Below, piece by piece: positions 3,807 through 61,295 of a DNA stretch of 64,000 bases (its first letter is position 1; each line of letters starts with the position of its first letter). A program made the translations under genes and the position numbers. The notes under the pieces are model-generated. The model saw only the letters and a list, made by a program, of their open reading frames with translations. It was not told the DNA's origin and did not search any database. The DNA comes from Candidatus Aldehydirespiratoraceae bacterium (lineage in GTDB: Bacteria; Actinomycetota; Acidimicrobiia; Acidimicrobiales; Aldehydirespiratoraceae), in NCBI GenBank assembly GCA_965208435.1, contig OZ242337.1, forward strand, positions 960,998 through 1,024,997. The letters are read 5' to 3'.

Positions 3807-4403
3807 TCAGCCTGAAGGCGCCTCGAGTCGGTGCAGCGACACCGCGTAGTTCCCGTCGGGGTACTGGTCCTGCTCCCAGGTCGCCCACCGCCGTTGAAGT
3901 CTCAGCCCTGCGGCTGCGGCGTGACGGTCGTAGTCTCCCAGACTGAGCCGCCCCAGTTGAAAACCAGCCAACAGGAGCCCTCCCGGCGCAAGATGACGGG
4001 CCATGTTGGCCAACACCGCCGCCTCGGTGCCCGGTTCCACGAAGATCATCACGTTGCCGGCCATAACGATCAGGTCGAACCGTCGATCCAGATCCAGCAT
4101 GCACAGGTCTTCTTGAAGCCAGCACAACCCGGGCGCCTTTGATTCTGCTTCAGCGAGCATGTGCGCGTCGAGGTCCACCCCGACAACAGGTATTTGACGC
4201 CGGTCGAGCTCGATGGCGACGCGACCCGTGCCGCAACCAGCATCGAGCACCGAAGCCCCCGGCCCGTACCCATATGACTCGAGCAGTGCCGACACCAGGT
4301 CGGCCTCGCCGTGGACGGACTCTCCGGCCGCTTCCATTGCTGCCCATCTGCTGTCGTATTCGGCACCGCTGCGAACGTCGCGACGGTTGCTCCATCTGTT
4401 CAT
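3807..4403 (-). CDS. Class I SAM-dependent methyltransferase
   Basis: Motif I is VLDAGCGTGRVAIEL. The start was chosen at the internal MNRWSN (ATG on the minus strand at 4403). The ORF-track start at 4571 would overlap the divergent peptidase gene. Confidence 0.8.
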   Translation of the reverse strand: MNRWSNRRDVRSGAEYDSRWAAMEAAGESVHGEADLVSALLESYGYGPGASVLDAGCGTGRVAIELDRRQIPVVGVDLDAHMLAEAESKAPGLCWLQEDLCMLDLDRRFDLIVMAGNVMIFVEPGTEAAVLANMARHLAPGGLLLAGFQLGRLSLGDYDRHAAAAGLRLQRRWATWEQDQYPDGNYAVSLHRLEAPSG

Positions 4404-4481
4404 GGTCACCTCTGTGGATCGCCGACGAACGATACAGTCCAGCGTCGCGCACGTCCGCCTCGGGTTCGAACCGAATCGGGG

Positions 4482-6836
4482 ATGAGTGCTAGAATCCAGC
4501 GGGTGAAAAGCGCCCGACAGGACCGCGAGCCCCTTGCTCAGGCTCACTCCCAGGACACCCGGCGTTCGCACCGACTGCTGACAATACTGCTGTTCCTCGG
4601 CGTGGCGTTCACATTGACCTCGGTCCTCACCTTCGCACCTGCGAGCTCAGCCCAGGACTCTCCAACGAACCGGATCGACTGCAGCAACCCCCCTGACGAT
4701 TTTGTGATCTACTGCCTGGCGTTCGAGAAGGTCGTCGACCATTTTGTCGACGGAGTCGTCGTGGCGGACTTGGCAGAGGCCGCAATACAGGGCCTGATCG
4801 TGGCCGACCTCGCTCCCAGAACCACTCATCCGCCTCCCTGCGCAGTACCAGCGCCCGAATTCGAAGCCGTGTGCGCAGAGATCGACAAGATCCAGGACAC
4901 GCGTGCAGCAGCGCTTGTGGCGACAGGCGCGATGCTCGAATCCCTCAACGACACGAACACCCGGTATCTGGTGCCCGTGCAGACGAGAAGGTTCTTCAGC
5001 CTTTTGGAAGCCGGCAACTCCAGGGCCGGAATCGGTATCGAATACGCCCTGTTGGGAGCCGACGGTCAACCGTGTTCCGCGCTCGGCGACACCTGTTTTC
5101 TGACCATCGCGGAGGTGTATCCGGGGAGTCCTGCCGACCTGGGCGGTCTTATGGTCGGAGACGTGATCGTCGAGTACGGGAAGACGGTCGCAGAACACAC
5201 CTGCAGCGAACTGTTGGACCTGGACGACCGGGACTACCTCGGTGAGTCTGCGGCGATCGTGGTGCGGCGCGACGGCCTCGAGATCCACCGCCTCCTGGGC
5301 ACGGCGGAAGTAGTCGATCCTCTGGTGTCGAGTCGAATCGTCGATGACAGCATCGGCTACATCCGGCTTGACGTGTTCGCCACCGGAGCTGCCGAGTTGT
5401 TTGCAGCGCAGCTCAGCGACCTCCTCAGTGCCGGTGTCGAGTCCATCGTGGTGGACCTCCGCGACAACCCCGGCGGCTACCTGAACGTCACCGAGGAGAT
5501 CGTTGATCTGTTCTTGGAGAAGGGCGATCTCAGTCATCGGACACAGTCGACTCGAGAGGACTCCTCCTTCTTTGTGGACTCTGACGGCATCGCCGCCGAC
5601 GCCATTGCGCTCCCGATGGCAGTAGCCGTGGACGGCGGCTCGGCTTCAGGCTCTGAGCTGTTCATCCTGGCCATGCGTGGAAACAACCGGGCAAAGATCG
5701 TCGGCACGGCAACCTACGGAAAGTCCACCGGTCAGTTGACTTTCACCGGCAAGTCTGTCAACGGCACGGTGTTGGGTGCAGTCCACGTGACGAGCCTGAG
5801 GTTCTTCGGACCGGACGGTCTCAGTTCATCAGGCGGGATCCAACCCGACACAGTCTCGGAGATATCGCCGTGTGCACACCCCATCGCTGTTGCACGCGAC
5901 GCGGTCGCGTCGCTCCTTCCGCGCGTCACACTGCTGGCCTTCACCTCCACACCCGCAGCGGATGCCTACAAAAAAGGAGAGAAAGTCACGGTGGCTGTTC
6001 AATTCGATGCTCCGGTCGTTGTCGATACGGAGGGCGGGGAGCCGTCCCTGGACCTTGAGATGGGCAACGACATCCGAACGGCCGCCTACGTTGCCACAAA
6101 GACGGACGAGGGAGTCAGCACAATCGAGTTCGAGTACACGATCAACGACGATGCCGACTACGACGGCATCAGCATCGGGGCCGACTCGATCAACTTGAAC
6201 GGGGCGACGATTCGTCGGGCCGCGGTCGGCTGGGATGCGCACCTCGACCACCCGATGCTCGCTGCCGACCCAGCCCAAGTCGTTGCGGCCGACCCCGAGC
6301 GGTATTTCACCGATATCGCCGAGACGTCGTTTGTCGACGCCATCAACTGGCTTCGACACGCCGGCATCACCACAGGCTGCGGACCAGACACCTACTGCGC
6401 CGACCTGCCCATCACCCGCGGCCAGATGGCCGCCTTCCTGAACCGCGCACTGCAACTGCCCGCCGCGGACCAGGACTATTTCAGCGACGACGACACCTCA
6501 ACCTTCCAAGACGACATCAACCGCCTCCGACACGCCGGCATCACCACAGGCTGCGGACCAGACACCTACTGCGCCGACCTGCCCATCACCCGCGGCCAGA
6601 TGGCCGCCTTCCTGAACCGCGCACTGCAACTGCCCGCCGCGGACCAGGACTATTTCAGCGACGACGACACCTCAACCTTCCAAGACGACATCAACCGCCT
6701 CCGACACGCCGGCATCACCACAGGCTGCGGACCAGACACCTACTGCGCCGACCTGCCCGTCACCCGCGGCCAGATGGCCGCCTTCCTCTACCGAGCCCGA
6801 GACCTCATCGCGGCTGCCCGCCAACAGACTCCGTGA
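4482..6836 (+). CDS. Secreted S41 (C-terminal processing / tail-specific) peptidase with a PDZ domain and three C-terminal SLH-like modules
   Basis: Has an N-terminal TM/signal segment (LLTILLFLGVAFTLTSVLTFAPASSAQ) and a PDZ-like GDVIVEYGK. S41 motifs are VVDLRDNPGGYL, GSASGSELF and TYGKSTGQ. Three repeats of type F.D..T.F.DDIN.L...GITTGCGPDTYC...PITRGQMAAFLNRAL match the S-layer-homology pattern. Confidence 0.85.
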   Translation: MSARIQRVKSARQDREPLAQAHSQDTRRSHRLLTILLFLGVAFTLTSVLTFAPASSAQDSPTNRIDCSNPPDDFVIYCLAFEKVVDHFVDGVVVADLAEAAIQGLIVADLAPRTTHPPPCAVPAPEFEAVCAEIDKIQDTRAAALVATGAMLESLNDTNTRYLVPVQTRRFFSLLEAGNSRAGIGIEYALLGADGQPCSALGDTCFLTIAEVYPGSPADLGGLMVGDVIVEYGKTVAEHTCSELLDLDDRDYLGESAAIVVRRDGLEIHRLLGTAEVVDPLVSSRIVDDSIGYIRLDVFATGAAELFAAQLSDLLSAGVESIVVDLRDNPGGYLNVTEEIVDLFLEKGDLSHRTQSTREDSSFFVDSDGIAADAIALPMAVAVDGGSASGSELFILAMRGNNRAKIVGTATYGKSTGQLTFTGKSVNGTVLGAVHVTSLRFFGPDGLSSSGGIQPDTVSEISPCAHPIAVARDAVASLLPRVTLLAFTSTPAADAYKKGEKVTVAVQFDAPVVVDTEGGEPSLDLEMGNDIRTAAYVATKTDEGVSTIEFEYTINDDADYDGISIGADSINLNGATIRRAAVGWDAHLDHPMLAADPAQVVAADPERYFTDIAETSFVDAINWLRHAGITTGCGPDTYCADLPITRGQMAAFLNRALQLPAADQDYFSDDDTSTFQDDINRLRHAGITTGCGPDTYCADLPITRGQMAAFLNRALQLPAADQDYFSDDDTSTFQDDINRLRHAGITTGCGPDTYCADLPVTRGQMAAFLYRARDLIAAARQQTP
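6354..6790 (+). repeat. 174-bp tandem repeat (2 identical units plus 1 partial) encoding SLH-like modules
   Basis: Units 6354-6527 and 6528-6701 read as identical by eye. The third copy (from 6702) has one substitution (cccatcacc to cccgtcacc) and then diverges near 6790. Confidence 0.9.
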
Positions 6837-8815: not shown

Positions 8816-10105
8816 TCAGCGTGATCTGTGTCGGCCGGCATGACCGAGCGACAAGACGCACTTTGCTCGTGCCCGCGGCATCCAAGCATTGCATCGAGGT
8901 TCGCTGGGTTGCTGCGCGGCGGGAGCGTCGTATGTGTGCATCGCCTCCTCGGCTGCGACTCTGTTGACGCTGTCGACAGGGATCACGTCCGCGGTCCGCA
9001 CCCTGCCGTCGCTGTCAGTTGTGATGTATGCGGCGTTCTCCAAGTGTCGCCATGCCCGTGTCAGGGTTTTCGGGTTGAGCGATAGAGACTGTGATATCTG
9101 GCGTGGGGTGGCTTCGCCGCCGAACCCGGCGAGTGCGGTGAGGTACGCTTGTTCGGTTTCGGCGAGCGAGTGCCATGCAGGCAACGCGACCCGTTCGTGC
9201 ATCAAGCGGTCCGCTTCAGTGACAGCTAGAGCGGCTGCGCTGTCGTCGATTGGGTTCGCTGGGGCACCCGCGGCGTCCCATGCGGTGTGTCCTAGTAGTT
9301 GCATTCTGTAGGGAAGTGATCCGACGGAGGCGACTAGTGTGTCCAACGCTGCGTTGTCGAAGGCCCCGCCTGCTTCGGTGACGGTCTCTTTCAGGAACCG
9401 GTGAGCGTTGACGCTGCTCAAGGGCGGCATGTCGCCTCGGTTGCACCTGGCAAAGAAGGTCATCCGTTTGTCTTCGAGCAGTGTGTGTTTCATTTCGGAA
9501 AGCCCCGCCCCCAAGAACGCCAACGGCATGAGTTCGTCTTTGATGATGTGTTGAAGGTCCGCTGCTAGACGCCGGAGTTCGCTGATGTCGCCGCTGTGGA
9601 TTTCGTCGATGACGAGCAGCGCCGCCGTGTCGTTGGCCGCGGCGTGCTCGGCGAGAGTGGTTAGTTGACGGCGAAGCCCCCACTTTCCACGCAGTGTGCG
9701 GGTAGCTTCGCGTTCCCAAGTAAACGGAGGCACTTTCAAAGACGAAGATGTGCGGCTGGTCACATCGCTGTCGTCGTCAGGAAGCGACTCGTGTGTGCTG
9801 CGCGCCCAGTCGATCCGTTCGCTGACTCGTTCATGGACGCCGTCAGTGGTCGCGTCGAGGGACAGCACAATCCAGCCAGACCCTCGGGCTTCGTTCTTGA
9901 GATGGTTCAAAATGACGGTCTTGCCTGAACCACGCGGTCCGAGCAGCAAGGACGTGAAACGCGGATCGCGGGGCCCCACCCCCAATCCCTGCTTCAACGA
10001 TGCGACGAGAGCGTCGCGTCCCACCAGCCGGCTCGGTTGCTGCCCGAAATCAGGCGTAAACGGGTTGGCGGGGAAACCGTCGGCTGAGGTCGGGGGAAGA
10101 AGCAT
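8816..10105 (-). CDS. AAA-type ATPase (ORC/Cdc6- or Arch_ATPase-like) with a C-terminal winged-helix-like region and a Cys/His tail
   Basis: Walker A is LLLGPRGSGKT and Walker B is ALLVIDEIH. The C-terminus has YLTALAGFGGEATPRQISQSL (wHTH-like) and CNAWMPRARAKCVLSLGHAGRH. The start was chosen at MLLPP (10105). Confidence 0.75.
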   Translation of the reverse strand: MLLPPTSADGFPANPFTPDFGQQPSRLVGRDALVASLKQGLGVGPRDPRFTSLLLGPRGSGKTVILNHLKNEARGSGWIVLSLDATTDGVHERVSERIDWARSTHESLPDDDSDVTSRTSSSLKVPPFTWEREATRTLRGKWGLRRQLTTLAEHAAANDTAALLVIDEIHSGDISELRRLAADLQHIIKDELMPLAFLGAGLSEMKHTLLEDKRMTFFARCNRGDMPPLSSVNAHRFLKETVTEAGGAFDNAALDTLVASVGSLPYRMQLLGHTAWDAAGAPANPIDDSAAALAVTEADRLMHERVALPAWHSLAETEQAYLTALAGFGGEATPRQISQSLSLNPKTLTRAWRHLENAAYITTDSDGRVRTADVIPVDSVNRVAAEEAMHTYDAPAAQQPSEPRCNAWMPRARAKCVLSLGHAGRHRSR

Positions 10106-10127
10106 AATCCCAATCCTACCACACAAC

Positions 10128-10181
10128 CTGTCGCACAAACGCACAAGCTGTCTCACAAACGCACAAACTGTCTCACAAACG
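10128..10181. promoter_or_regulatory. Three tandem 20-bp iteron/operator-like repeats upstream of the ATPase gene
   Basis: The units are ctgtcgcacaaacgcacaag, ctgtctcacaaacgcacaaa and ctgtctcacaaacg. They begin 22 nt upstream of the start codon. Confidence 0.7.
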
Positions 10182-10354: not shown

Positions 10355-10693
10355 TCATGAGACAGCACCGTCAGAGAGCTTGCTTCGCCGTTCGATGCGC
10401 TTGTCAACGCCGTAAGCCAACACCCCCCAGAAGAACATAGAGACAAGGCCCACCACGAGCTTGGCCTCATTGATACCACCGGGCAGCCACGGATCGGCAA
10501 GCGGTGCAAATACTAGCCACACAAACACCAAATAGGCCCAGAGCAATGACAGGAGCCGCAGCCAGCCCCCGCGATACAGCCAGTTCACAACGCGGTCTAG
10601 CCGCACCTCGCCGCCAGCTGCAGCGTCGTCGGCGTCGCCCGTCTGCTGGGTGGTCGCGCTGGTTGGTGTGTCGACTCTGGCGCTATCGGTCAT
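10355..10693 (-). CDS. Small membrane protein (hypothetical)
   Basis: About 112 aa from MTDSARV, with two hydrophobic segments (WLRLLSLLWAYLVFVWLVFAPL and LVVGLVSMFFWGVLAY). Confidence 0.5.
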   Translation of the reverse strand: MTDSARVDTPTSATTQQTGDADDAAAGGEVRLDRVVNWLYRGGWLRLLSLLWAYLVFVWLVFAPLADPWLPGGINEAKLVVGLVSMFFWGVLAYGVDKRIERRSKLSDGAVS

Positions 10694-10742
10694 GGTTCTC
10701 TCGAGTTCACAGTGAGCTTGTCTCCACAAAAAGGGGGGGACC

Positions 10743-10903
10743 TCATGGCTTCGGCGTCGGTGGCGTCACGGTCGGCTTCGGCGGATCGACTTTCGGCGTC
10801 GGTGGCGTCGTGGTCGTTGTCGTCGTGGTCGTGTCCTCGAACGGGTCAGGTGCATGCTCACAGAACAAGGACTCGGCGATCACAACCACCGATGGAGGCC
10901 GCC
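10743..10903 (-). pseudogene. Truncated paralogue of the C-terminal part of the 605-aa repeat protein
   Basis: HAPDPFEDTTTTTTTTTPPTPKVDPP parallels HLPDPFENDDQTITTTTTVPPTTTT...VVVDPDPP in the 11359-13176 product. Similarity stops at repeat B copy 2. Confidence 0.4.
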
Positions 10904-10945
10904 GACCCTCAACCACCCCGCCCCCCACGTTTACGCGCAGGCTCG
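10904..10945. repeat. Direct repeat B, copy 2
   Basis: Matches 8628-8669 at 41 of 42 positions. Confidence 0.95.
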
Positions 10946-10967: not shown

Positions 10968-11318
10968 CTATTTGTACGCGTTCTTACCGTTCGCCGACCA
11001 TCGTAGCCGACCTGTCGCCACCCACCGACGGAGACCACCCAGCAACCGGCGTTGACGAAAGCGACACCAGAGTGAGTGGGCTGCGATCATCAAAAGAAAC
11101 GTTGCACACGCCGCCACCAATTCTCCAACGTACGTGAACGCGCCCCCCACCGACACAAGCCACGGGATAAAATAGGTCCTGTTCAGGTAGGCGAACGGAG
11201 CGGCAGCAGCGAAAGCCGCCAGCCATGGCACCCAGTTGGCAGGTTTGATACCAGCGCTAGAATGTTCGTCGACGACATGCTCACCGGTCAATTCAGCGGA
11301 CTTCGGTTGTCTGGCCAA
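10968..11318 (-). CDS. Small membrane protein (hypothetical)
   Basis: 116 aa with 2-3 hydrophobic segments, 40 nt downstream of the repeat-protein gene on the same strand. Confidence 0.5.
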   Translation of the reverse strand: MARQPKSAELTGEHVVDEHSSAGIKPANWVPWLAAFAAAAPFAYLNRTYFIPWLVSVGGAFTYVGELVAACATFLLMIAAHSLWCRFRQRRLLGGLRRWVATGRLRWSANGKNAYK

Positions 11319-11358: not shown

Positions 11359-13176
11359 TCACCTTGAACCTTCACAAAGTAACATATACAGACCAGCCGT
11401 CCGCCAGTACACCCACGGCACACAGTTCGGGAAGGTCCGACTGTGGGCAAGAGCCGCGTCCTGCACGCGGAAGAACCTGAACCAGTATTTGGAGCTGTTA
11501 TAGGCAGGCAGACTGTCAACCGAAGGGAACGACGCAGGAGGGTCAGGGTCCACCACTACAGGCGCAGGCGGCACCGTCGTCGTCGTTGTGGTCGTGGTGG
11601 TTGTTGGCGGCACCGTCGTTGTCGTTGTAGGCGGAACTGTCGTGGTGGTAGTGATCGTCTGGTCGTCGTTCTCGAACGGATCAGGCAAGTGTGGGCAAGC
11701 ATGCGGAGCTACCCCATAGTTGGTCACAATGACAGCCAAACCCAAACTCTTGGCCGCCGCTCTCGCAAGTCGCCCAGCGAGGCCCAACTCCGCCAAGTCT
11801 CGCGCCAGAGACGAGTGTTCCCAACACAACGCTAGGTGCAGAGTCGGGGGTGTTACGAACGGCGGAGGCTGCCATCCCCCTAAGCCAGGACCCGGGGCGT
11901 CGGAGGGCGTTGCTCGCTCAGTCGCCTCGACGAAGCTCTCACCTACGTAGATGCCCACACCCACCACAGTGTTCACTGCGGCACTAACGGCGTTCTTGAT
12001 CCCGTCTCCGATTGCGCTCCAGTTGATGCGCGTGACGGTTTGTGTTTTGATGAATGGGTCTTTGGGTTGGTGGCAGCCTGTGTGGGTGTCCGTCTCTTCC
12101 CATTCCCTGACCGGAAGGTGCGCTCCGGCGGGTTTGGATAGCGTGAACCGTGTCTCGTCGACGACTTTGAACGCCCAAGCCTCAGGCAGAGGGGGTATAC
12201 GCTGGCCGTTTGGGCAGGTGTGTTGTGTGGGGTCGTGTCGGGTGGTGGTTTTGGTGACGGTTTTGGTGAAGGGCGCGACCCGGACCTTCTTGTTTTCGTA
12301 GTTCTCTACGTCGACGGTGACAGTCTTGGTGAACGGCGCTACCCGCACCTGTCGGGTCTGATAGTTGAACACGTCTGTCCGCACGGTGGAGGTGAACGGC
12401 GCTACCCGCACCTTCTGGTTTTCGTAGTTGAACACGTCCACCGTCTCGGTCTTGTGGGTCGGCGCGACCCGCACCTGACGCGTCTGATAGTTGAACAACG
12501 GGACCTGTCCGACTTTGGTGAACGGCGCTACCCGCACCCGGCGGGTCTGGTAGTTGTGCACGTCCACCTGCACGGTCGTGGAGAACGGCGCGACCCGGAC
12601 CCGGGTGTAGACGCATCCACGCGGCGGCCGGCAATCGCTTGTCACGGTCCGGTAGTTGTACACCGGGATCGTCCTCGCCTCGCTGAACGGCGCTACCCGC
12701 ACCTTCTGGTTTTCGTAGTTGAACACCGCGACGCGGCCTGGCCCAGCAAACGGCGCTACCCGCACCCGATGCGCCTCATAGAAATACACCTGCGACGTGA
12801 CAGTCTTGGTGAACGGAGCGACCCGCACCCGACGGGTCTGATAGTTGAACACATCTATCGTCGTGGTCTCAGAGAACGGCGCCACCCGCACTTGCTGGTC
12901 CTCATAGTTGAACACGTCCACCGTCGTCGTCTCAGAGAACGGCGCAACCTGAACCCGGCGAGTCTCATAGTTGAACACGTCCACCTCCTCTGTGGTTGTG
13001 GCATCTTCACCGTCATGAGCCGACACCGGCGACAGAACAGACGCGAACACAGCCGCGCAGACGACCACGACACAACAACACACCGCGTGCAGCCCCACCG
13101 ACAAGCCGGGACGCGGCGCGTCGCCACTCATCTTTCGGTGTCGACGGCCTGTGTCGGGAGCATCGGGCAGGTTCAT
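11359..13176 (-). CDS. Secreted/surface protein with eleven 21-residue tandem repeats, a globular region and a Thr/Pro-rich stalk (no recognised family)
   Basis: An N-terminal hydrophobic signal/anchor (AVCCCVVVVCAAVFASVLSPVSA) is followed by repeats with consensus [VI]DVFNY[EQ]xxxVRVAPF[ST]xTxT. Later comes TTTTTVPPTTTTTVPPTTTTTTTTTTVPP. A GGAG Shine-Dalgarno sits 6 nt upstream of the ATG. Confidence 0.8.
   Translation of the reverse strand: MNLPDAPDTGRRHRKMSGDAPRPGLSVGLHAVCCCVVVVCAAVFASVLSPVSAHDGEDATTTEEVDVFNYETRRVQVAPFSETTTVDVFNYEDQQVRVAPFSETTTIDVFNYQTRRVRVAPFTKTVTSQVYFYEAHRVRVAPFAGPGRVAVFNYENQKVRVAPFSEARTIPVYNYRTVTSDCRPPRGCVYTRVRVAPFSTTVQVDVHNYQTRRVRVAPFTKVGQVPLFNYQTRQVRVAPTHKTETVDVFNYENQKVRVAPFTSTVRTDVFNYQTRQVRVAPFTKTVTVDVENYENKKVRVAPFTKTVTKTTTRHDPTQHTCPNGQRIPPLPEAWAFKVVDETRFTLSKPAGAHLPVREWEETDTHTGCHQPKDPFIKTQTVTRINWSAIGDGIKNAVSAAVNTVVGVGIYVGESFVEATERATPSDAPGPGLGGWQPPPFVTPPTLHLALCWEHSSLARDLAELGLAGRLARAAAKSLGLAVIVTNYGVAPHACPHLPDPFENDDQTITTTTTVPPTTTTTVPPTTTTTTTTTTVPPAPVVVDPDPPASFPSVDSLPAYNSSKYWFRFFRVQDAALAHSRTFPNCVPWVYWRTAGLYMLLCEGSR
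12253..12984 (-). repeat. 63-bp (21-codon) coding tandem repeat array, 11 units
   Basis: The Ala of the VAPF motif falls at residues 78, 99, 120, 141, 162, 196, 217, 238, 259, 280 and 301. Spacing is exactly 21 except for one unit carrying a 13-residue Cys-containing insert (DCRPPRGC). Confidence 0.9.
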
Positions 13177-13190
13177 TGCGGTCTCCGGTT

Positions 13191-13562
13191 TCTACGCGGC
13201 GGATAATTGCCGTTATCGGTCACCTAGACCCCCGACCCGCGGCACGCGAGACACACAGGCTCCGGCTATGAGAACCCCTGATCGGGGTGTTGTTCAGAGA
13301 GTTCTGAAACGAGCCGGGACCGTCGCCTGTGGCTGGTGTGTGGTCGCTGGTTCGTGCAACAACCGGCAGAACCAGACGTTGCCGGACCCGACCGCGGGAC
13401 TCTGCGACCAAGAAACCTGCCGACCGGCAGACCAGTCATATCCCCAGGTCAACTGCACAATCACCAGGTCGTGCCGAGGGTGGATCAACGCTCGGCATCA
13501 ACAAAGGCTTGACAAGCACCGAACTGAACGTGGAGGATAACGGCAATTATTGGTCAGGTAGA
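13191..13562. promoter_or_regulatory. Candidate invertible DNA switch: two 38-bp dyad-symmetric recombinase-type sites in inverted orientation
   Basis: Site L (13191-13228) is TCTAC gcggcg GATAA TTGCCG TTATC ggtcac CTAGA. Site R (13525-13562) is TGAAC gtggag GATAA CGGCAA TTATT ggtcag GTAGA. The central 6-bp spacers are reverse complements of each other. Site L begins 15 nt upstream of the repeat-protein ATG, and site R ends 50 nt upstream of the recombinase ATG. Confidence 0.6.
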
Positions 13563-13612
13563 TGCATGCTGGTCTGGTCGGGTTCGCCTCTGGGGTTGGT
13601 TGACTCTGGGTT

Positions 13613-14635
13613 ATGCATCACACCACAGGTAATCTCGGCGGCCCTACCCGACTCGACGCACTCAACGGCTTGAGTGTTGAGGCGCTCGAGCGTTTGGTTG
13701 TTGAAGGTAAGGCTGCGGCGTATTCGCCCAACACGCACAAGACCTACGACGTCGGGTACAGGAACTGGGCCCGATGGGCGACCAGTCACAGTTGTCGTGT
13801 GTTCCCAGCAGACCCGAGACATCTTCAGATGTGGCTCGCGACGCTGGCCGCCCAGAACATGAAACCCTCAACTTGGTGCACCTACCTCGCCGGGGTCGCC
13901 CACCACCACCGCGGCTGCGGGACTGCGAACCCGGCTCATGACCCCCAGGTCCGTCTGCTGCTGCGCGGCTTGACCCGCCGAGCCGCCGCCGGCGGCCACA
14001 CTCCCAAACAGGCCGCGGCGTTGCGTTGGAACGATATACAACACATAGCCGACACCGCTCATGAACCGCGTCGCAACCAGCCCGGCGGGCGGGCCGAGAC
14101 CCCGGGCCAAGCCCGCCAACGCGGCGACGAAGACGTCGCCATGGCCGCGGTCGCCCACGACGCAGCGTTGCGCTCAAGCGAACTCCTCGCGCTCACCTGG
14201 AAAGACATCGAACCCTCACAAGACGACCGGCTCGACGTCGTGAGAATCCGCCGCTCCAAAACCGACCAGACCAGCCAAGGCGCTGCCGCGCCCATATCAG
14301 AGTTCGCCACCCAAGCGCTCACCCGCATAAGACCCGCTGATCTGGACCCCGGCCGGCGCATCTTCAACATCTCAGCAAGCACACTCAACCGTCGCCTCAA
14401 AACCGCTGCCCGAACCGCAGGCATCGAACCCGCACGCATTAGCGGTCACTCACCGCGAGTCGGGATGGCCCAAGACCTCGCCGCGCACGGCGTCACCATG
14501 GTCGGCCTCAAACAAGCAGGCCGCTGGAAGAGCTCCGCAACTGCCAGCCGCTACACCCAACACCTCAACGCCCACCACACACCAGCCGGCCGATACCTCA
14601 AAACCCAACACCGAACCAACCCCCCAGACCCGTAA
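13613..14635 (+). CDS. Tyrosine recombinase / phage-integrase family, Cre-like architecture
   Basis: Has the catalytic-domain markers LRSSELLALTW (Arg), GHSPRVGMAQDLA (HxxR) and GRWKSSATASRYTQH (Trp/His ... Tyr). The N-terminal core-binding region (HKTYDVGYRNWARWA) resembles Cre-type recombinases. Confidence 0.9.
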   Translation: MHHTTGNLGGPTRLDALNGLSVEALERLVVEGKAAAYSPNTHKTYDVGYRNWARWATSHSCRVFPADPRHLQMWLATLAAQNMKPSTWCTYLAGVAHHHRGCGTANPAHDPQVRLLLRGLTRRAAAGGHTPKQAAALRWNDIQHIADTAHEPRRNQPGGRAETPGQARQRGDEDVAMAAVAHDAALRSSELLALTWKDIEPSQDDRLDVVRIRRSKTDQTSQGAAAPISEFATQALTRIRPADLDPGRRIFNISASTLNRRLKTAARTAGIEPARISGHSPRVGMAQDLAAHGVTMVGLKQAGRWKSSATASRYTQHLNAHHTPAGRYLKTQHRTNPPDP

Positions 14636-15706: not shown

Positions 15707-18349
15707 TCAATGCTCAGCAACCAAAGTCTCGATGAAGTTGTAGGTCGTCTGGGCGACGGCTGACCAATCGGTATCGGCCTGCCTCGCGGTTGCCGCTGCG
15801 CCGGCGGTCGCCAGATCGCCATCGCTCAGCGCGTCGATGCAGGCAGCGAGGTCGGTGACCGTTGATCCGTAGTAGATCCCGGCTCCTCCGAGAGCCTCGT
15901 GGAGGTATCCCCAATCGGAGGCCAGGCTCGGCAGCCTGGTTCCGATGGCATCGGCGACCACGCCGGTGGTCAGCATTCCTTCGCTGAACGGCAGAACCAG
16001 GGCGTCGAGCGAGAAGAGTCGACGGGCGTAGACTTCCAGGTCGACCAGTTCGTACCGTTCGGCCACAACGATCCGGTCATCGTCTGGCACCTGCTCGTCG
16101 CCCATAGACCAGACACAGAGTTGCACATCGTCGCGACTGCACCGATGGACCGCGTCGATCACCAGTTGCACGTCCTTCTCTCGGCGGGGTGCGCCGACGA
16201 CACCGAGTCGCAGGCCTGCAGGCGACAGACCGAGGCTCTCCTCGGCATCGGAGCGGCCTCCGGGGGGCCTCAATGGCTCCAAACGCTGCCCCCAATGCCC
16301 ATGGGGAGCGACCAGGTGGCGAGTGTGGGCACCGTAGCCGTAGTCGGATTCCATCACCGCTCGGCCATAGCTGCTGTGATGGACGACGCCGTCGGCCTCC
16401 GAGCACCAGATCTCGTAGATCTCACGCGCCCCCGAGACGTAGTGCGGCTTGCGGTTGTGTTGAGTCCACAGAATCGGCAGGCCCGCGGCGCGAAGATTGG
16501 CGATCACTTCCCGGGTTCGGGCCGGATCGGTTCCGACGGACCACTCCGGCCAGTGCAGATGGAACAGGTCGAATTCATACAGCGCAGCGGGGTCGTCCAA
16601 CAGCCACATCGCCTCCTGGTCCGCTACCCGATCGCCGAGTGGGTCATAGAGGCTGCGGTGATACCAGTGTCCTGCCGCTGTGGCCGCAACCCGCAACTGG
16701 GGCGTGACCTTCCAGGTGAAGTTGATCTCTTCGGACGGTTCAAGGTCGATCTCGTGCACACGCACGTGCTCGTTCCAGAACGAGCGGTGTGCCAGCATTC
16801 CCGAGGTGTCGATCACTCTGGTCGTGCATCGGTGGTCGGTTTCGAACTCGACTAGGAGCTTTCGTTGGGAAGTCTCGGGGATCTGCAGCGATATCGCGTC
16901 GATGGTTTCGGGGACGCGATCGAGCCTCAGCGTCTCGGACACGACGACACTGCGCTGGTCCACTCTGTAGCTGGCACTGCGAGATCCGGCGACAGACGGA
17001 CCCGGCGAATCCGAACCTGCCGTTTCGTCCGAGGGGGTTCCCAGCGGCGTGAACTGGTTGAAGCTGACGTCGAGTCGGCCGTCACTGTGCTGGATCGAGT
17101 CTGGTGTCCCGAAGGTTGTCCACACGGTACCGTCGGCGTGAACCGCGGGAAGCATCGACGCTAGTTGGTTGTTGTTGACGGGTACTTCGAAGGTGCCGGG
17201 CCAGCGCAGCGCCGGCGTGTAGTCAACCCAGAATCCTCCGACGAAGGGCAGCACGAATTCAACACCTCTGCCGCGGTGGGCCCAGACCGAGGCATTGCTT
17301 TGCGGGTCCAGGACAACCAGGCGGTCGACCGCCCCGAAACTCACCGTTGGAGCAGCGGCATCGAGCGCTTCTGATTTCCTCAATTCGAGCGATGCCTGCA
17401 CCAGTTTCCCGAGCAGATCGAGAGTCATCTGCAACCGCCGCTGCGGACCACGGTAGAACATCGTTGAACGGTGCTGGTGGGCGTTGACGAGACCGTCCTC
17501 GAACCAGTCGCTGATGCGGTGCGCTGAGAGTTCAGCTCTGCCGAGCCAACCGCTGCGATCATCGGTCAACCCCCGCGACACCGCGATCGCGCCGAGTTCG
17601 ATGTTCATCACGACGCCGAGCGCTCCTGTTGAGCGTCCCCAGACGATCGCTCCCTCGGGTGTGGCCAAGTCGGCGACGTCGCTGAGAACCTTGCGGAATC
17701 CGCTCGACCAGGAGCTCCCAAGACGCTCTGCGAACGGTTCGGCGAACAGGTACACGTCTGGTGTGTAGATGTCGAAGTTGGCGCCACCGAAATCGTCGAT
17801 CCAACCCGTCTGGAGTCGGGTGAACAAACCGGAGACCTTGTTGATCAGGGTGTCGAGTACATCCTCGTCCGGGAGTCGGCCGAGGCGGGATCGATCAAAC
17901 TCACAGCGGGTGAGTACCACCGAATAGTTGTTGGGGAGCCCGCCTGAGGCCAGCGCTTCGAGCATCGAGGAGGAGTCGATGGCCAAAGCAGCGTTGGCCA
18001 GATCCGTCTCGCTCCAGCTTCGGAGCGCCGCGTTGTCGTCGAGCCCACCCAAGCGCAACAGAGTCTCGGCTGCTCGATAACTGTAGAAACTGTGCGTCGC
18101 GGCACCGTCGAGTTGTCGCACGATCTCGAGCGCGACGTCGGCGCACGACAGTCCCGCGACCTTCTCTACACCAGCTTCGTGCAACAGAGAGAGTGTGAAT
18201 GCCAGATCGGCTCGAGCGTCCGGGCCGACGAGGTATCCGCCGTGTACTCGCGGCAGGTCGAGACCGGGAGCGTGTTCGGACTCAAGGTCGCTCAGTACTG
18301 CTTTGGCAATGTTCAGCAGTCGTTCTGCGAGGTCGGCCGGGGTTGTCAT
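15707..18349 (-). CDS. Large hypothetical protein with an unassigned N-terminal domain and a C-terminal GT-B glycosyltransferase-like half
   Basis: An 880-aa uninterrupted ORF. The C-terminal half (LFHLHWPEW...ILWTQHN...VVHHSSYG...LVLPF) resembles GT4-like transferases. The N-terminal 550 aa are unassigned. Confidence 0.6.
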   Translation of the reverse strand: MTTPADLAERLLNIAKAVLSDLESEHAPGLDLPRVHGGYLVGPDARADLAFTLSLLHEAGVEKVAGLSCADVALEIVRQLDGAATHSFYSYRAAETLLRLGGLDDNAALRSWSETDLANAALAIDSSSMLEALASGGLPNNYSVVLTRCEFDRSRLGRLPDEDVLDTLINKVSGLFTRLQTGWIDDFGGANFDIYTPDVYLFAEPFAERLGSSWSSGFRKVLSDVADLATPEGAIVWGRSTGALGVVMNIELGAIAVSRGLTDDRSGWLGRAELSAHRISDWFEDGLVNAHQHRSTMFYRGPQRRLQMTLDLLGKLVQASLELRKSEALDAAAPTVSFGAVDRLVVLDPQSNASVWAHRGRGVEFVLPFVGGFWVDYTPALRWPGTFEVPVNNNQLASMLPAVHADGTVWTTFGTPDSIQHSDGRLDVSFNQFTPLGTPSDETAGSDSPGPSVAGSRSASYRVDQRSVVVSETLRLDRVPETIDAISLQIPETSQRKLLVEFETDHRCTTRVIDTSGMLAHRSFWNEHVRVHEIDLEPSEEINFTWKVTPQLRVAATAAGHWYHRSLYDPLGDRVADQEAMWLLDDPAALYEFDLFHLHWPEWSVGTDPARTREVIANLRAAGLPILWTQHNRKPHYVSGAREIYEIWCSEADGVVHHSSYGRAVMESDYGYGAHTRHLVAPHGHWGQRLEPLRPPGGRSDAEESLGLSPAGLRLGVVGAPRREKDVQLVIDAVHRCSRDDVQLCVWSMGDEQVPDDDRIVVAERYELVDLEVYARRLFSLDALVLPFSEGMLTTGVVADAIGTRLPSLASDWGYLHEALGGAGIYYGSTVTDLAACIDALSDGDLATAGAAATARQADTDWSAVAQTTYNFIETLVAEH

Positions 18350-40502: not shown

Positions 40503-40628
40503 GTGTCTGAGAGCGGCACAGTGTCTGAGAGCGGCACAGTGTCTGAGAGCGGCACAGTGTCTGAGAGCGGCACAGTGTCTGAGAGCGGCACAGTGTCTGA
40601 GAGCGGCACAGTGTCTGAGAGCGGCGGA
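40503..40628. repeat. 18-bp perfect tandem repeat, 6 full units plus 1 degenerate
   Basis: The unit is gtgtctgagagcggcaca. It reads as hexapeptide VSESGT on the plus strand. Confidence 0.95.
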
Positions 40629-40889
40629 GTGTCCCGCGGTGCGCAACGGTTCCAGCTGGCGCAACTCGTGCAGCACCTTGCGCCCAACATTCATCACTGG
40701 AACTCCAGCACCGTGTTCTCGATCGACCGGCTCCGCAACGACATCGGCTGGGAGCCTCAACACACCTTCGAGTCGATGGTCGACCACACGTTCGGCTGGT
40801 ACAACGACGCTGGTCTGGCGCACGCGCAGACCGTCGACTGGGGTTTCGAGGATTCGATCCTCACGGTGCTCGACGCTCAAGGCGGATGA
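40629..40889 (+). pseudogene. C-terminal remnant of an NAD-dependent epimerase/dehydratase
   Basis: FSIDRLRNDIGWEPQHTFESMVDHTFGWY matches the conserved C-terminal end of that family. No Rossmann N-terminus lies upstream. Confidence 0.5.
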
Positions 40890-50601: not shown

Positions 50602-52326
50602 TTAACGCTGCTGTGTCGGGTAACGCACCACTCGGACCTGCCCCACACCGACCTCAACATTGAGTTCAATGTCGTGTTCGCGGTGGGTGTTGTGCTCGGC
50701 TTCCAGTCCGACACCCTTCTCGAACTGGTCATAGTCGATCAGGCCCCCCATGCCGTAGCCCTCGTACCGACCGGCTCCGCACAGCGCCCTCTCTGTTCTG
50801 AAGTCCGGTATCTGCTCGTCGACCCTGTAGACGTATTGAGCATTGACGCAGTACAACTGCTCGTCCTCGATTCTCGGAACCATCACCTGTCTGACGGTCA
50901 CGTATTCGCCGCCACGCATCGTGCCTGCACCGATATTCGCGTTGGTCATGACCCTCAGATCTGCTGGGATTCTGATCGTGACTTCACCCACGGTGAGATG
51001 AACGCCGTGTTCGATCGGCGCTCGTACGGTCGACCGCAGTGAGTCGCGGTCGAGCGACCTCAGGTCCACCACCAGGCTGCCGATCCCGTGTTTGACCTCA
51101 CTATCCAATGAACTGACGTCTTCAGGCACGGTCTCGACGTCGCCGAACCCCGACCACCACGATGTGTCGCTGCCTGAGAACACTACCAATGGGGGGAGCA
51201 GCAACACACCGAGCGCCATGAGCGCCCAGTTCCTGCCGACGAAGACCGACACCAACAGACCAGCAGCGACAACCAGCAGGGCCACCGCGAAGAACTCGCC
51301 GAGGAGCACCCGCTCCATGTCGAGCCGATCCAACAGGATCGCGCCGCCCGTCAGCACGAGCAGAGCTGCGAGGGTCAGGAAGGTGACCGTCGACTGACCA
51401 CGACGTTGGGAGCGGCGCTCGGCTCTGCGGTCACGCCGGCTCGCCTTGGGTTCGGGCGGTTCGGGCGGTTGGTCCCCCAGATTCGCCCCCGGCCACTCCG
51501 AGCCTGCCGCCGAGGGAGGGGGCGGCACCACATTTTCAGTGGGTGCCGCGAGCGGCTCGGCCGGAGTGTCCAGGGGGGGCGCCAACCGGCGGGGCCAGAA
51601 GACCAGCCCGATTCCGGCGACAATCAGCGCAAGCGCCAGATACGGCGCCGTGCGTGACACTGTCGTGAACAATTCGAAGACGTTGCGACTCAAGATCGCG
51701 GTGATGAACATTCCCACCGCTATCAAGACGATGCCCGCGAGGTTTCGGAACCGGCGGGGCGCACCGCTGCGCAGAGCGTTGGCGAGGATGCTGCCCGAAT
51801 CGCCGAGCGGCACGATCAGCCAGCTCACCAGATAGAGGAACGGTCCGACTCCGGCGAAGAGGGTCAGAACGATGAAGCCGACGCGGACGATCACCGGGTC
51901 TACACGGAAGAAGTCTCCGAGTCCACCCGCAATACCGGCAACCAATCGATCATCTTTGCTGCGGCGCAAAGCAGGCCAACGAAACTCGCGCTTTTCTCTG
52001 GTTTGTTCGTCGGCAGCCTCCTCGGGCTCAGCCTCGTCCCGCGGCGTATCCTCTGAGTCCTCCTCGGGCTCAATGTCCTCCACCTCGTTGTCTTCTGTCG
52101 GCTCGCCCTCGGGCGCGTCCGCCTCAGTTGCCGCTTCAGCTTCGTGTGCTCCTGTCACAGCCTCGGGCGCATCTGCCACAGTTGCCGCTTCAGCTTCGTG
52201 TGCTCCTGTCACAGCCTCGGGCGCATCTGCCACAGCTGCCGCTTCAGCTTCGTGTGCTCCTGCCTCGGTCTCCGCTGCGTCGTCGGAGGGGGACTCCTCT
52301 GAGTCGGCGGGAGGGTCTTTTGCCAT
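50602..52326 (-). CDS. PspC domain-containing membrane protein with an acidic repeat N-terminus
   Basis: The PspC domain is LVAGIAGGLGDFFRVDPVIVRVGFIVLTLF, with multiple TM segments. The start was chosen at MAKDPP. Confidence 0.85.
   Translation of the reverse strand: MAKDPPADSEESPSDDAAETEAGAHEAEAAAVADAPEAVTGAHEAEAATVADAPEAVTGAHEAEAATEADAPEGEPTEDNEVEDIEPEEDSEDTPRDEAEPEEAADEQTREKREFRWPALRRSKDDRLVAGIAGGLGDFFRVDPVIVRVGFIVLTLFAGVGPFLYLVSWLIVPLGDSGSILANALRSGAPRRFRNLAGIVLIAVGMFITAILSRNVFELFTTVSRTAPYLALALIVAGIGLVFWPRRLAPPLDTPAEPLAAPTENVVPPPPSAAGSEWPGANLGDQPPEPPEPKASRRDRRAERRSQRRGQSTVTFLTLAALLVLTGGAILLDRLDMERVLLGEFFAVALLVVAAGLLVSVFVGRNWALMALGVLLLPPLVVFSGSDTSWWSGFGDVETVPEDVSSLDSEVKHGIGSLVVDLRSLDRDSLRSTVRAPIEHGVHLTVGEVTIRIPADLRVMTNANIGAGTMRGGEYVTVRQVMVPRIEDEQLYCVNAQYVYRVDEQIPDFRTERALCGAGRYEGYGMGGLIDYDQFEKGVGLEAEHNTHREHDIELNVEVGVGQVRVVRYPTQQR
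52127..52268 (-). repeat. 54-bp coding tandem repeat (2 units plus 1 partial)
   Basis: Units at 52127-52180 and 52181-52234 encode the VADAPEAVTGAHEAEAAT-type acidic repeat. Confidence 0.85.
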
Positions 52327-61231: not shown

Positions 61232-61295
61232 TACTTTGCAAATTCGCAGCAAGATACTTTGCAAATTCGCAGCAAGATACTTTGCAAATTCGCAG
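61232..61295. promoter_or_regulatory. 2.8 copies of an AT-rich 23-bp repeat containing the palindrome TTTGCAAA
   Basis: tactttgcaaattcgcagcaaga occurs at 61232-61254 and 61255-61277, with a partial copy at 61278-61295. The array starts 17 nt upstream of the DUF4143 ATPase start codon. Confidence 0.7.

Follow-up and report, generated by a model that had tools for sequence, protein, structure and literature searches.

The 64,000-nucleotide stretch analyzed here (the window; contig OZ242337.1, positions 960,998 to 1,024,997 of the forward strand) belongs to a Candidatus Aldehydirespiratoraceae bacterium of the Acidimicrobiia. Our analysis concerns the protein encoded by a minus-strand open reading frame (ORF) at 11359-13176, hereafter the window protein; P-numbers denote its homologs and L-numbers the loci of homologs. 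The ORF is intact, begins with ATG and has 605 codons for 605 amino acids, and a Shine-Dalgarno sequence (GGAG), also kept in one paralogous locus, lies 7-10 nt 5' of the ATG. The central part of the protein is a repeat array that, with considerable confidence, can be assigned to a single mirror-paired two-stranded β-hairpin. From the N-terminus to the C-terminus, the protein is divided into the following parts, where pLDDT is the predicted local distance difference test score of the AlphaFold2 model and strands are those given by DSSP:

13018-13176, minus strand: predicted Sec signal peptide (residues 1-53), with a long charged n-region and the hydrophobic core AVCCCVVVVCAAVFASVLS, ending in VSA directly before HD.
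12634-13017, minus strand: N arm (residues 54-181), five full 21-residue units and a half unit (IPVYNYRTVTSD); strands at 57-183.
12613-12633, minus strand: tip loop C-R-P-P-R-G-C (residues 182-188), a predicted disulfide-closed turn; AlphaFold2 turn at 184-186.
12238-12612, minus strand: C arm (residues 189-313), a half unit and five full units that mirror the N arm with i + j = 370; strands at 187-313.
12052-12237, minus strand: His/Cys module (residues 314-375), H-D-P-T-Q-H-T-C321-P-N-G-Q ... E-W-E-E-T-D-T-H-T-G-C368-H; pLDDT 60-82.
11665-12051, minus strand: variable helical region (residues 376-504), with the conserved Cys pair C451 and C494; the most shuffled part among paralogs.
11515-11664, minus strand: Thr/Pro-rich linker (residues 505-554; TTTTTVPPTTTTTVPPTTTTTTTTTTVPPAPVVVDPDPP), within which a recombination breakpoint separates paralog modules.
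11362-11514, minus strand: C-terminal tail domain (residues 555-605), β-α-β-β, with Cys585, Cys601 and the motifs LPxYD and C-x-P-W-V-Y-W...L-C.

The repeat array is strictly periodic. The Ala of the VAP motif falls at residues 78, 99, 120, 141, 162, 196, 217, 238, 259, 280, and 301 (n = 11), in exact agreement with the eleven 21-residue repeats numbered in the initial annotation, which had been made from the letters alone; the spacing is 21 residues everywhere except for 34 across an insert. The consensus proposed there stands overall, with the exceptions of one unit that has VAPT for VAPF and one that has YFY for FNY. Its 13-residue insert with two Cys is present as well, and can be refined to a 7-residue predicted disulfide loop, C182-R-P-P-R-G-C188, plus flanks. 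At the DNA level, Tandem Repeats Finder detected periodicities of 63 bp and 126 bp in the array (scores 253, 262, 330, and 218). The array is rich in V (18%), T (15%), R (10%), and F plus Y (12%), and L, I, and G are nearly absent, a composition that would be compatible with a sheet lacking a conventional core.

Mean identity among the ten intact units is 60% at the amino-acid level and 67% at the nucleotide level, and codon position 3 is less conserved among the units (0.58) than positions 1 and 2 (0.72), so that the repeats are old and have been maintained by selection at the protein level. The ratio of nonsynonymous to synonymous substitution rates (dN/dS) was 0.35 against the closest paralog or ortholog, L002 (400 codons). 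Judged from its sequence, the gene is real, is under purifying selection and is no recent duplication artefact, as indicated by the intact ORF, the strict period, the weak conservation of third positions and this dN/dS value. The ORF might instead be a decaying or silent cassette from which no protein is expressed: partial or remnant copies of the family are known, both in the window (10710-10928) and in L001 and L005, and a promoter was not recognized upstream. However, the 605-codon frame is intact and preceded by a Shine-Dalgarno sequence, the dN/dS value and the better conservation of codon positions 1 and 2 in the repeat units both point to a selected protein, and every domain module and Cys pair is intact, so that a silent cassette is extremely improbable.

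The evidence for the fold is mainly comparative, and it was weighted above the AlphaFold2 models. In every homolog, the center of the array is occupied by a C-x-P-x-x-G-C loop or by a longer two-Cys loop. In several homologs the two halves of the repeat motif are segregated around this loop, in the form (RVRVAPFTx)n - Cys loop - (VYNYETRx)n, and the segregation is complete in four proteins. These features led to the idea of a pairing of one half of the array with the other, which was then tested. The N arm was measured between the predicted mature N-terminus and the first Cys, and the C arm between the second Cys and the HD/HxH motif at which the array closes. The arms of the window protein are 128/125 residues long, and those of the other 11 homologs with complete ends are 128/125, 151/151, 130/130, 150/157, 143/145, 97/106, 108/108, 112/111, 67/67, 57/56, and 128/127. 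Across the 12 proteins the two lengths, which range nearly threefold from 56 to 157 residues, are correlated with a Pearson r of 0.993.

The register of the two arms is also mirrored. When positions are mirrored about the Cys pair (182 + 188 = 370), the VAPF Ala residues of the N arm (78...162) fall exactly on the FNY Asn residues of the C arm (292...208), and the reverse is also true. The register offset is 0 in six proteins (the window protein, P0001, P0002, P0003, P0006 with its 14-residue loop, and P0010) and a constant +1 in seven more distant ones (P0012-14, P0016, P0018, P0021, and P0023); it drifts only at the insertions of P0005. Where the arms consist of unlike repeat types, their counts are equal in P0007, P0008, and P0036 (4/4), P0022 (5/5), P0015 (8/8), and P0020 and P0044 (10/10), with near-matches of 6/5, 9/8, and 11/8 elsewhere. 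The motif types are confined to one arm each, except in P0026, for which the search patterns overlapped.

Residues that face each other in the mirror arrangement covary. Pooled over four proteins, the mutual information between mirror partners was 8.66 bits, compared with 5.87 +/- 0.40 bits after shuffling (z = 7.0). With shuffling within proteins z was 8.4, and it was still 4.2 when the 21 residues on each side of the loop were left out. When the pairing was shifted by 1-3 whole units, which keeps the phase and changes the partner, z fell between -1.2 and 1.3. In the window protein, the lone deviant unit of the N arm (SQVYFYEAHRVRVAPFAGPGR, residues 128-148) faces the lone deviant stretch of the C arm (VGQVPLFNY...VAPTHK, residues 222-242). 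The one-to-one pairing of N-side and C-side repeats that marks a fold-back stalk is thus seen in the register, in the matched counts and in the mirror covariation.

The structure models, whose strands were taken from DSSP strings and not from coordinates, follow the same pattern. In the AlphaFold2 model of the window protein, near-continuous strands run from 57 to 183 and from 187 to 313 on either side of the turn at 184-186. The model of P0016, which is 32% identical, has strands at 35-100, a turn at 101-102 and strands at 103-169, with mirrored breaks and a pLDDT of 54-78 in the 10-residue blocks that span the hairpin.

A β-solenoid or a stack of 21-residue hairpins had been suggested as a possible fold in the initial annotation. 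Each unit would then form one coil or one strand-turn-strand, the array would be a rod of about 5 nm, and the two-Cys insert would be a loop excursion. With its strict period of 21 residues and its conserved Asn and aromatic positions, the array does recall the ladders of solenoids, the coils of which typically have a period of 18-22 residues. However, a solenoid offers no reason for a Cys loop midway in every homolog, or for the co-variation of the arm lengths, and it cannot house the members in which units of 9-10 residues are segregated by type around the loop, because segregated units of 9 residues are too short for solenoid coils. A solenoid would also be free in its number of units and would require no symmetry about an internal point, whereas the arms vary together (r = 0.993) and the heterotypic counts match. 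Covariation would be expected between stacked, directly repeated units, whereas mirror-related units were found to covary. Finally, solenoid strands are 3-7 residues long with turns in each repeat, whereas the strands of the AlphaFold2 models, which are of low confidence, are unbroken for 17-41 residues and are interrupted by one central turn, not every 5-7 residues. The mirror symmetry, the matched arm counts, the mirror covariation and the two models all oppose this reading, and we regard a solenoid or hairpin stack as very unlikely.

Some observations weigh against the single hairpin and were considered together with the evidence above. The homologs share descent, so the 12 pairs of arm lengths and the register results are not independent observations. 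Deviations from the consensus correlated only weakly between mirror-related residues (r 0.13-0.31), and shift 0 did not score highest; this test was superseded by the mutual-information test and its controls. Confidence in the model of the window protein was low, with a mean pLDDT of 53 and a predicted template modeling score of 0.25; local pLDDT was 58-69 near the tip and 35-46 further out. In addition, a two-stranded ribbon of 125 pairs would leave many side chains of Val, Phe, and Tyr exposed, suggesting that it may need oligomerization or coiling.

This last point bears on a further alternative, in which the hairpin is a protomer and chains lie side by side to form a β-barrel tube or a multi-stranded fiber, that is, a needle or filament, in the manner of the stems of anthrax PA and other binary-toxin pores or of viral fiber shafts. 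Val, Phe, Tyr, and Pro occur on both faces of the ribbon, and their burial by association would be favored. The top Foldseek matches of the P0016 model, all non-significant (E 0.2-9), included chains with long hairpin stems, among them those of the PA pore, CDTb, the iota Ib pore, lysenin, and the phi29 and P68 tails. These matches are far short of significance, however, and homology to toxin or phage proteins was not found in Pfam, PHROGs, or phage records. The region of the tip, TIPVYNYRTVTSDC-RPPRG-CVYTRVRVAPFS, carries charges on both faces and lacks an amphipathic stretch that could span a membrane; Arg, Asp, and Thr occur beside it at both parities, unlike in a pore-forming stem. An assembly of this kind is therefore unlikely.

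The remaining parts of the protein indicate where such a hairpin would be placed. The signal-peptide segment is the sole stretch of the window protein in which the Kyte-Doolittle hydropathy of a 19-residue window exceeds 1.6 (2.72). AlphaFold2 predicts a helix at residues 28-47 in this region, and the S-A-H-[DE] motif that follows the hydrophobic core is kept in 11 homologs, which bears out the earlier description of a secreted protein with an N-terminal hydrophobic segment and adds a family-wide cleavage motif; the predicted mature N-terminus is His54. The mature protein has eight Cys, arranged as four conserved neighbor pairs, for which we infer the disulfide bonds 182-188, 321-368, 451-494, and 585-601. 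The eight paired Cys and the signal peptide together point to an oxidized, extracytoplasmic protein, and an extracytoplasmic location is very probable on these predictions. The presence of the hairpin beside Peptidase_S8, fn3, or Calx-beta domains in other members accords with this location.

The His/Cys module has the family motif H-D-x-x-x-H-x-C-P-x-G-Q ... W-x-E-x-D-x-H-T-G-C-H, and its alignment columns C8, P9, G11, Q12, W46, and C55 are invariant or nearly so among the homologs. It gave no match in PDB and Pfam searches, and is a probable small disulfide-bonded domain at the base of the hairpin. In most members a His stands at the mature N-terminus (residue 54 in the window protein, 13015-13017), and the array ends in H-D-x-x-x-H or H-x-H (residues 314-319, 12220-12237). 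These histidines converge at the base of the ribbon in the hairpin model and could make a metal-binding clasp; in the distant members P0021 and P0023 the mature protein starts with Asp, not His. Farther along, one or two transmembrane-like helices occur in the variable region of several paralogs and, by Kyte-Doolittle hydropathy, none in that of the window protein. The possible hydrophobic segment noted earlier (AVNTVVGVGIYVG) stays below the transmembrane level (19-residue Kyte-Doolittle value under 1.6), which is reached by the signal peptide only. The Thr/Pro stalk and aromatic tail of the same description are present, and the tail is in fact a confidently predicted small domain, with a pLDDT above 90 in the window protein and of 75-85 in P0016, that is conserved in the homolog alignment.

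From these features, the following arrangement can be proposed. After cleavage of the signal peptide between VSA and HD, residues 54-313 would fold into one two-stranded antiparallel β-ribbon, in which the N arm (54-181) runs outward to the disulfide-closed turn C182-RPPRG-C188 and the C arm (189-313) returns. Residue i would pair with residue 370-i, so that the V-R-V-A-P-F strand faces the V-F-N-Y-E strand of the opposite arm, with Ala/Asn, Arg/Glu, Pro/Phe or Tyr, and Val/Tyr as cross-strand pairs. About 125 pairs with a rise of 3.3-3.4 Å would give a rod of about 40 nm (roughly 17-50 nm in relatives), and rod length in the relatives would be set by repeats gained or lost in the two arms together. 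From the ribbon base the chain would continue into the His/Cys mini-domain, the variable helical region, the Thr/Pro linker and the β-α-β-β domain. These C-terminal modules probably retain the protein at the envelope, possibly together with a small protein with two transmembrane segments encoded downstream, and the ribbon would project as a rigid mast with the conserved loop at its far end. The chain enters and leaves the hairpin at one and the same end, which argues for a protruding arm and against a spacer between domains. One point tells against this picture: the window protein has neither an anchor of transmembrane grade by Kyte-Doolittle hydropathy nor, by regular-expression search, an LPxTG motif, and its C-terminus is a folded Cys-containing domain ending in ...LLCEGSR and not a sortase anchor, so that retention at the envelope is a step we infer. 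The role of a projecting envelope mast is thus put forward as plausible, somewhat short of an even chance.

The ribbon could also be the part that anchors or binds, being multivalent for a repeating polymer of the envelope or environment, such as a secondary cell-wall polymer or an exopolysaccharide, and tethering the domains at its base, similar to choline-binding and other cell-wall-binding repeats. Such a function would suit a hairpin with both chain ends at the same end, which cannot separate two domains, and its attachment to enzymes and to domains of adhesion type (Peptidase_S8, fn3, and Calx-beta). The conserved Asn, Tyr/Phe, Arg, and Glu at fixed spacing are what a polymer-binding surface would show, and the organism has SLH-domain proteins, implying a decorated wall. 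However, the needs of cross-strand pairing explain the conserved residues equally well, and no similarity to a known carbohydrate- or wall-binding family was found in Pfam, NCBIfam, or PDB sequences. A binding function is rather unlikely, and the projecting mast is retained below as the working interpretation.

The gene had also been placed under a candidate invertible switch. The features upstream of it are as follows:

13191-13217, strand not applicable: gene-proximal inverted-repeat arm, 15 nt 5' of the start codon, with a 15-nt perfect core, ATAATTGCCGTTATC.
13536-13562, strand not applicable: recombinase-proximal inverted-repeat arm, the second arm of the same pair.
13613-14635, plus strand: divergent gene for a tyrosine recombinase of 340 aa (Pfam Phage_integrase, 5.1e-14, and Phage_int_SAM_1; PHROG integrase).

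The two arms are 27 nt long and 81% complementary, with 318 nt between them. A pair with the core ATAATTGCCGTTAT, about 310-320 bp apart and directly 5' of the hairpin gene, is found in the window, in L001 (9617-9641/9950-9974) and, with a related core, in L017 (3598-3639/3949-3990), and the segment between the arms is much less conserved than the arms. Recombinase copies that are 72-76% identical adjoin the paralogs in L001-L004; the recombinase gene is divergent in the window and L001, and lies 5 kb downstream in convergent orientation in L017. The locus thus resembles fimS in its adjacent recombinase gene and in the inverted repeats that surround a segment of a few hundred bp between recombinase and target gene, and a recombinase for each copy with an inverted-repeat element of about 320 bp upstream suggests that expression might be switched on and off (phase-variable). 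Other results speak against it. The inverted orientation was not seen in six paralogous loci, in which every aligned inner segment is co-linear; a σ70 consensus was not found in 13177-13612, by a scan not calibrated for Acidimicrobiia; and the distant members P0002, P0005, and P0016 have no adjacent recombinase. Metagenome contigs of the Joint Genome Institute (JGI) were scanned with two exact patterns, the first for the inverted junction and the second for either junction; both scans returned zero matches and are uninformative, as the collection lacks these loci. Of the earlier proposal, the inverted repeats directly upstream and the conserved recombinase hold, whereas only one orientation has been seen, and a switch of expression by inversion can be suggested only tentatively.

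On the other side of the gene, the following features lie within a block flanked by metabolic genes:

8816-10156: AAA_16 ATPase.
10355-10729, minus strand: small ORF with two transmembrane segments, the probable start of which is an internal Met (MTDSARVDTPTSAT...); no Pfam match.
10710-10928, minus strand: remnant of the C-terminal helix and Thr/Pro linker of another paralog (...VVVIAESLFCEHAPDPFEDTTTTTTTTTPPTPKVDPPKPTVTPPTPKP, then stop), matched in tblastn by P0001 (82% over 28 aa, 1e-9) and P0002 (1e-6).
10968-11318, minus strand: hydrophobic ORF of 116 aa directly 3' of the gene, with a 41% identical homolog in L005; no Pfam or PHROG match.

The small membrane-protein gene expected after the hairpin gene is therefore represented by the ORFs at 10968-11318 and 10355-10729. 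A 37% identical homolog of the latter directly follows the L005 gene, and small ORFs with two transmembrane segments follow the hairpin gene in most loci of the subfamily, often in duplicate (L014 7407-8075, L015 7170-7439, and L001 12589-13323). The ORF at 10355-10729 and post-gene ORFs in L017, L015, and L001 share an N-terminal TDxxETPT-type motif, (M/V)-T-D-x-x-E-T-P-T/S; BLAST does not connect the small downstream ORFs across loci, and this short motif is their only link.

The window gene itself is a mosaic. The L002 locus (OZ224042.1) matches the window at 87% over the recombinase, the repeats and the 5' two-thirds of the gene; the DNA that encodes the tail matches the 3' end of L004 at 94.7%, in a match that stops inside the Thr-linker DNA at 11628; and the DNA of the helical region at 11639-11837 matches a third paralog fragment, L005/P0004, at 87%. 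The tail is nearly identical to those of P0007, P0008, and the L004 protein, the remaining parts of which differ, and the L004 protein consists of the front of P0001 joined to the back of P0008/9. The matches of single modules to L002, L004, and L005/P0004, together with the L004 fusion, show at the sequence level that modules have been shuffled between paralogs.

Promoterless inverted 3' cassettes were found in the metagenome-assembled genome (MAG) OZ224042.1, at L001 13828-14568 on the minus strand (P0030) and at L005 13272-13529 on the minus strand (the end of P0004). They lie a few kb downstream of full-length genes and recall shufflon-type or gene-conversion cassettes. The window contains no inverted cassette of this kind, only the same-strand remnant at 10710-10928. 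At L017 5561-8688, a 707-bp unit composed of about 240 bp at the 3' end of the P0003 gene (a portion of the Thr linker and the tail domain) and a 114-aa ORF with two transmembrane segments is followed by four further tandem copies, three of them 97-100% identical and the last 65-84% identical. This amplification suggests that the tail domain and the small membrane protein may act together, or that the 3' end may be a swappable cassette. The remnant at 10710-10928 resembles a decayed copy of such a unit of 3' gene end and small ORF.

The description of the protein as belonging to no recognizable family was confirmed. Profile libraries were judged by the curated cut-off of each family: the best Pfam match was PilP, with 18.9 bits against a cut-off of 25.6, all others being weaker, and the best NCBIfam match had 20.5 bits against a cut-off of 250. 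Among PDB sequences, the best phmmer E was 0.43, and a profile of the C-terminal half gave low-complexity matches only. Foldseek returned no match at E <= 0.001, the best being 0.13 (PDB) and 0.053 (BFVD) for the model of the window protein and 0.2 (PDB) for that of P0016. For the repeat protein, nothing significant was obtained with PHROGs, PADLOC, or tblastn against 50,697 phage records, and a contig index queried for exact records of the window protein, the recombinase and P0008 gave none. A prophage or mobile-element tail fiber was considered and rejected: matches to PHROGs or phage records were absent, the window contains no tRNA, and the genes on either side are ordinary metabolic ones. 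A defense system around the neighboring AAA_16 ATPase was likewise set aside, PADLOC giving sub-threshold matches only.

Relatives are few. A word-indexed search of 5.8 billion clusters yielded 23 proteins, and an exhaustive phmmer pass over 1.84 billion cluster representatives yielded 37 relatives; a search with a profile of the hairpin core gave three short proteins only, labeled 'hypothetical protein', the label that named members always carry in their sources. All 12 loci found (one genome per GTDB species) are in Acidimicrobiia MAGs, and the 3.73-Mb MAG OZ224042.1 has at least 5 copies of the family. By these searches, this is a very rare, unnamed Acidimicrobiia family of exported proteins. 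In other members the hairpin module occurs together with Peptidase_S8, fn3, or Calx-beta domains (Pfam), and some carry a HELAHxxGxxH metalloprotease-like motif, at which Pfam gave no match. Members with such a portable hairpin outside the window are P0015, P0012-14, P0036, and P0017/19/20/44.

Some other features of the window were recorded. A 174-bp tandem repeat (2.6 copies, 98% identical) at 6336-6787, inside an 841-aa S41 peptidase/PDZ/SLH gene (4311-6836), probably consists of recently duplicated SLH modules. Further tandem repeats are located at 40503-40633 (18 bp x 7.3, 98%, with a PLSDTV-type hexapeptide run in one frame), 52107-52262 (54 bp x 2.9, 96%), and 61232-61295 (23 bp x 2.8, 100%, TACTTTGCAAATTCGCAGCAAGA). 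Two genes from the recombinase, an ORF of 880 aa on the minus strand (15707-18349) has no Pfam match at E <= 0.001.

Taken together, the data are best explained by an exported, disulfide-bonded envelope protein with a giant hairpin mast, mosaic paralogs and possible phase variation, an account that we regard as fairly probable as a whole. That it represents a new architecture, a monomeric mirror-repeat β-ribbon used as a portable mast on diverse extracellular proteins of Acidimicrobiia, module-shuffled and possibly recombinase-switched, is slightly favored. In the literature on the motif and on long two-stranded ribbon stalks, only analogies were found, and this architecture was not found described. 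If correct, this would be by far the longest single β-hairpin known to us, and it would mean that a core-less two-stranded sheet can serve as a rigid rod tens of nm long, which bears on the stability of single-layer β-sheets and could help in designing protein rods whose length is programmed by one mirrored repeat pair per step. The family is a natural experiment in the co-evolution of the two halves of one repeat array. It would also give an insight into the cell surface of Acidimicrobiia, which has hardly been studied; these bacteria are frequent in soil, water, and sludge and rarely cultured.

Among known systems, the streptococcal surface proteins of the antigen I/II family (SpaP, SspB) have a similar plan. 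Their chain folds back, repeats on the N side pair with as many on the C side in a stalk tens of nm long, the turn of the chain is distal and both ends are at the base. Antigen I/II is built from an α-helix wound with a polyproline-II helix, and has a large globular tip and an LPxTG sortase anchor. The fold-back plan is alike, whereas the window protein would be a β-ribbon with a 7-residue disulfide loop as its tip and without LPxTG, and there is no sequence relation: Ala-rich helical and Pro-rich repeats, a V domain and LPxTG were not found in it, and Pfam gave no match.

A solvent-exposed two-stranded antiparallel ribbon stalk with a disulfide-bonded tip is also known from the ultralong third complementarity-determining region of the heavy chain (CDR H3) of bovine antibodies (PMC8602281, PMC5994613). 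In CDR H3, however, each strand has about 10-20 residues and carries a multi-disulfide knob on an antibody, whereas the strands of the window protein would have about 125 residues each, with mirrored repeats and a minimal loop. The stalks of fibrillar adhesins are made of tandem domains such as G5-E, Rib, and Ig-like (PMC9210967). Similar to the window family, these adhesins are exported, have a repetitive β-rich rod the length of which depends on repeat number, and form fast-evolving paralogs; in contrast, their independent domains run one way with the functional domain at the far end, whereas the window protein would be one hairpin that changes by mirrored pairs and has both termini at the base. 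β-Solenoids, such as curli CsgA and pentapeptide or hexapeptide repeats, share repeats of about 20 residues rich in β-formers, with conserved Asn and aromatics. They need no central turn, equal halves or mirror covariation, whereas the window family has all three. Antigen I/II, bovine CDR H3, and fibrillar adhesins are the closest analogies, none of them related in sequence and none built alike.

With regard to the genetic context, the locus is similar to the fim-type switch (fimS, FimB/FimE) in having a tyrosine recombinase beside an inverted-repeat segment of about 320 bp located 5' of a surface-protein gene. Unlike fimS, inversion was seen in no locus and a promoter was not found, and the 340-aa recombinase is Xer/integrase-like and not of FimB size. 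The promoterless inverted 3' cassettes downstream in related loci, but not in the window, are similar to shufflons and the Mu G segment. A linked recombinase, inverted repeats and mosaic paralogs together hint that this lineage of free-living actinobacteria may vary its surface, and such systems have, to our knowledge, hardly been described in such a lineage.

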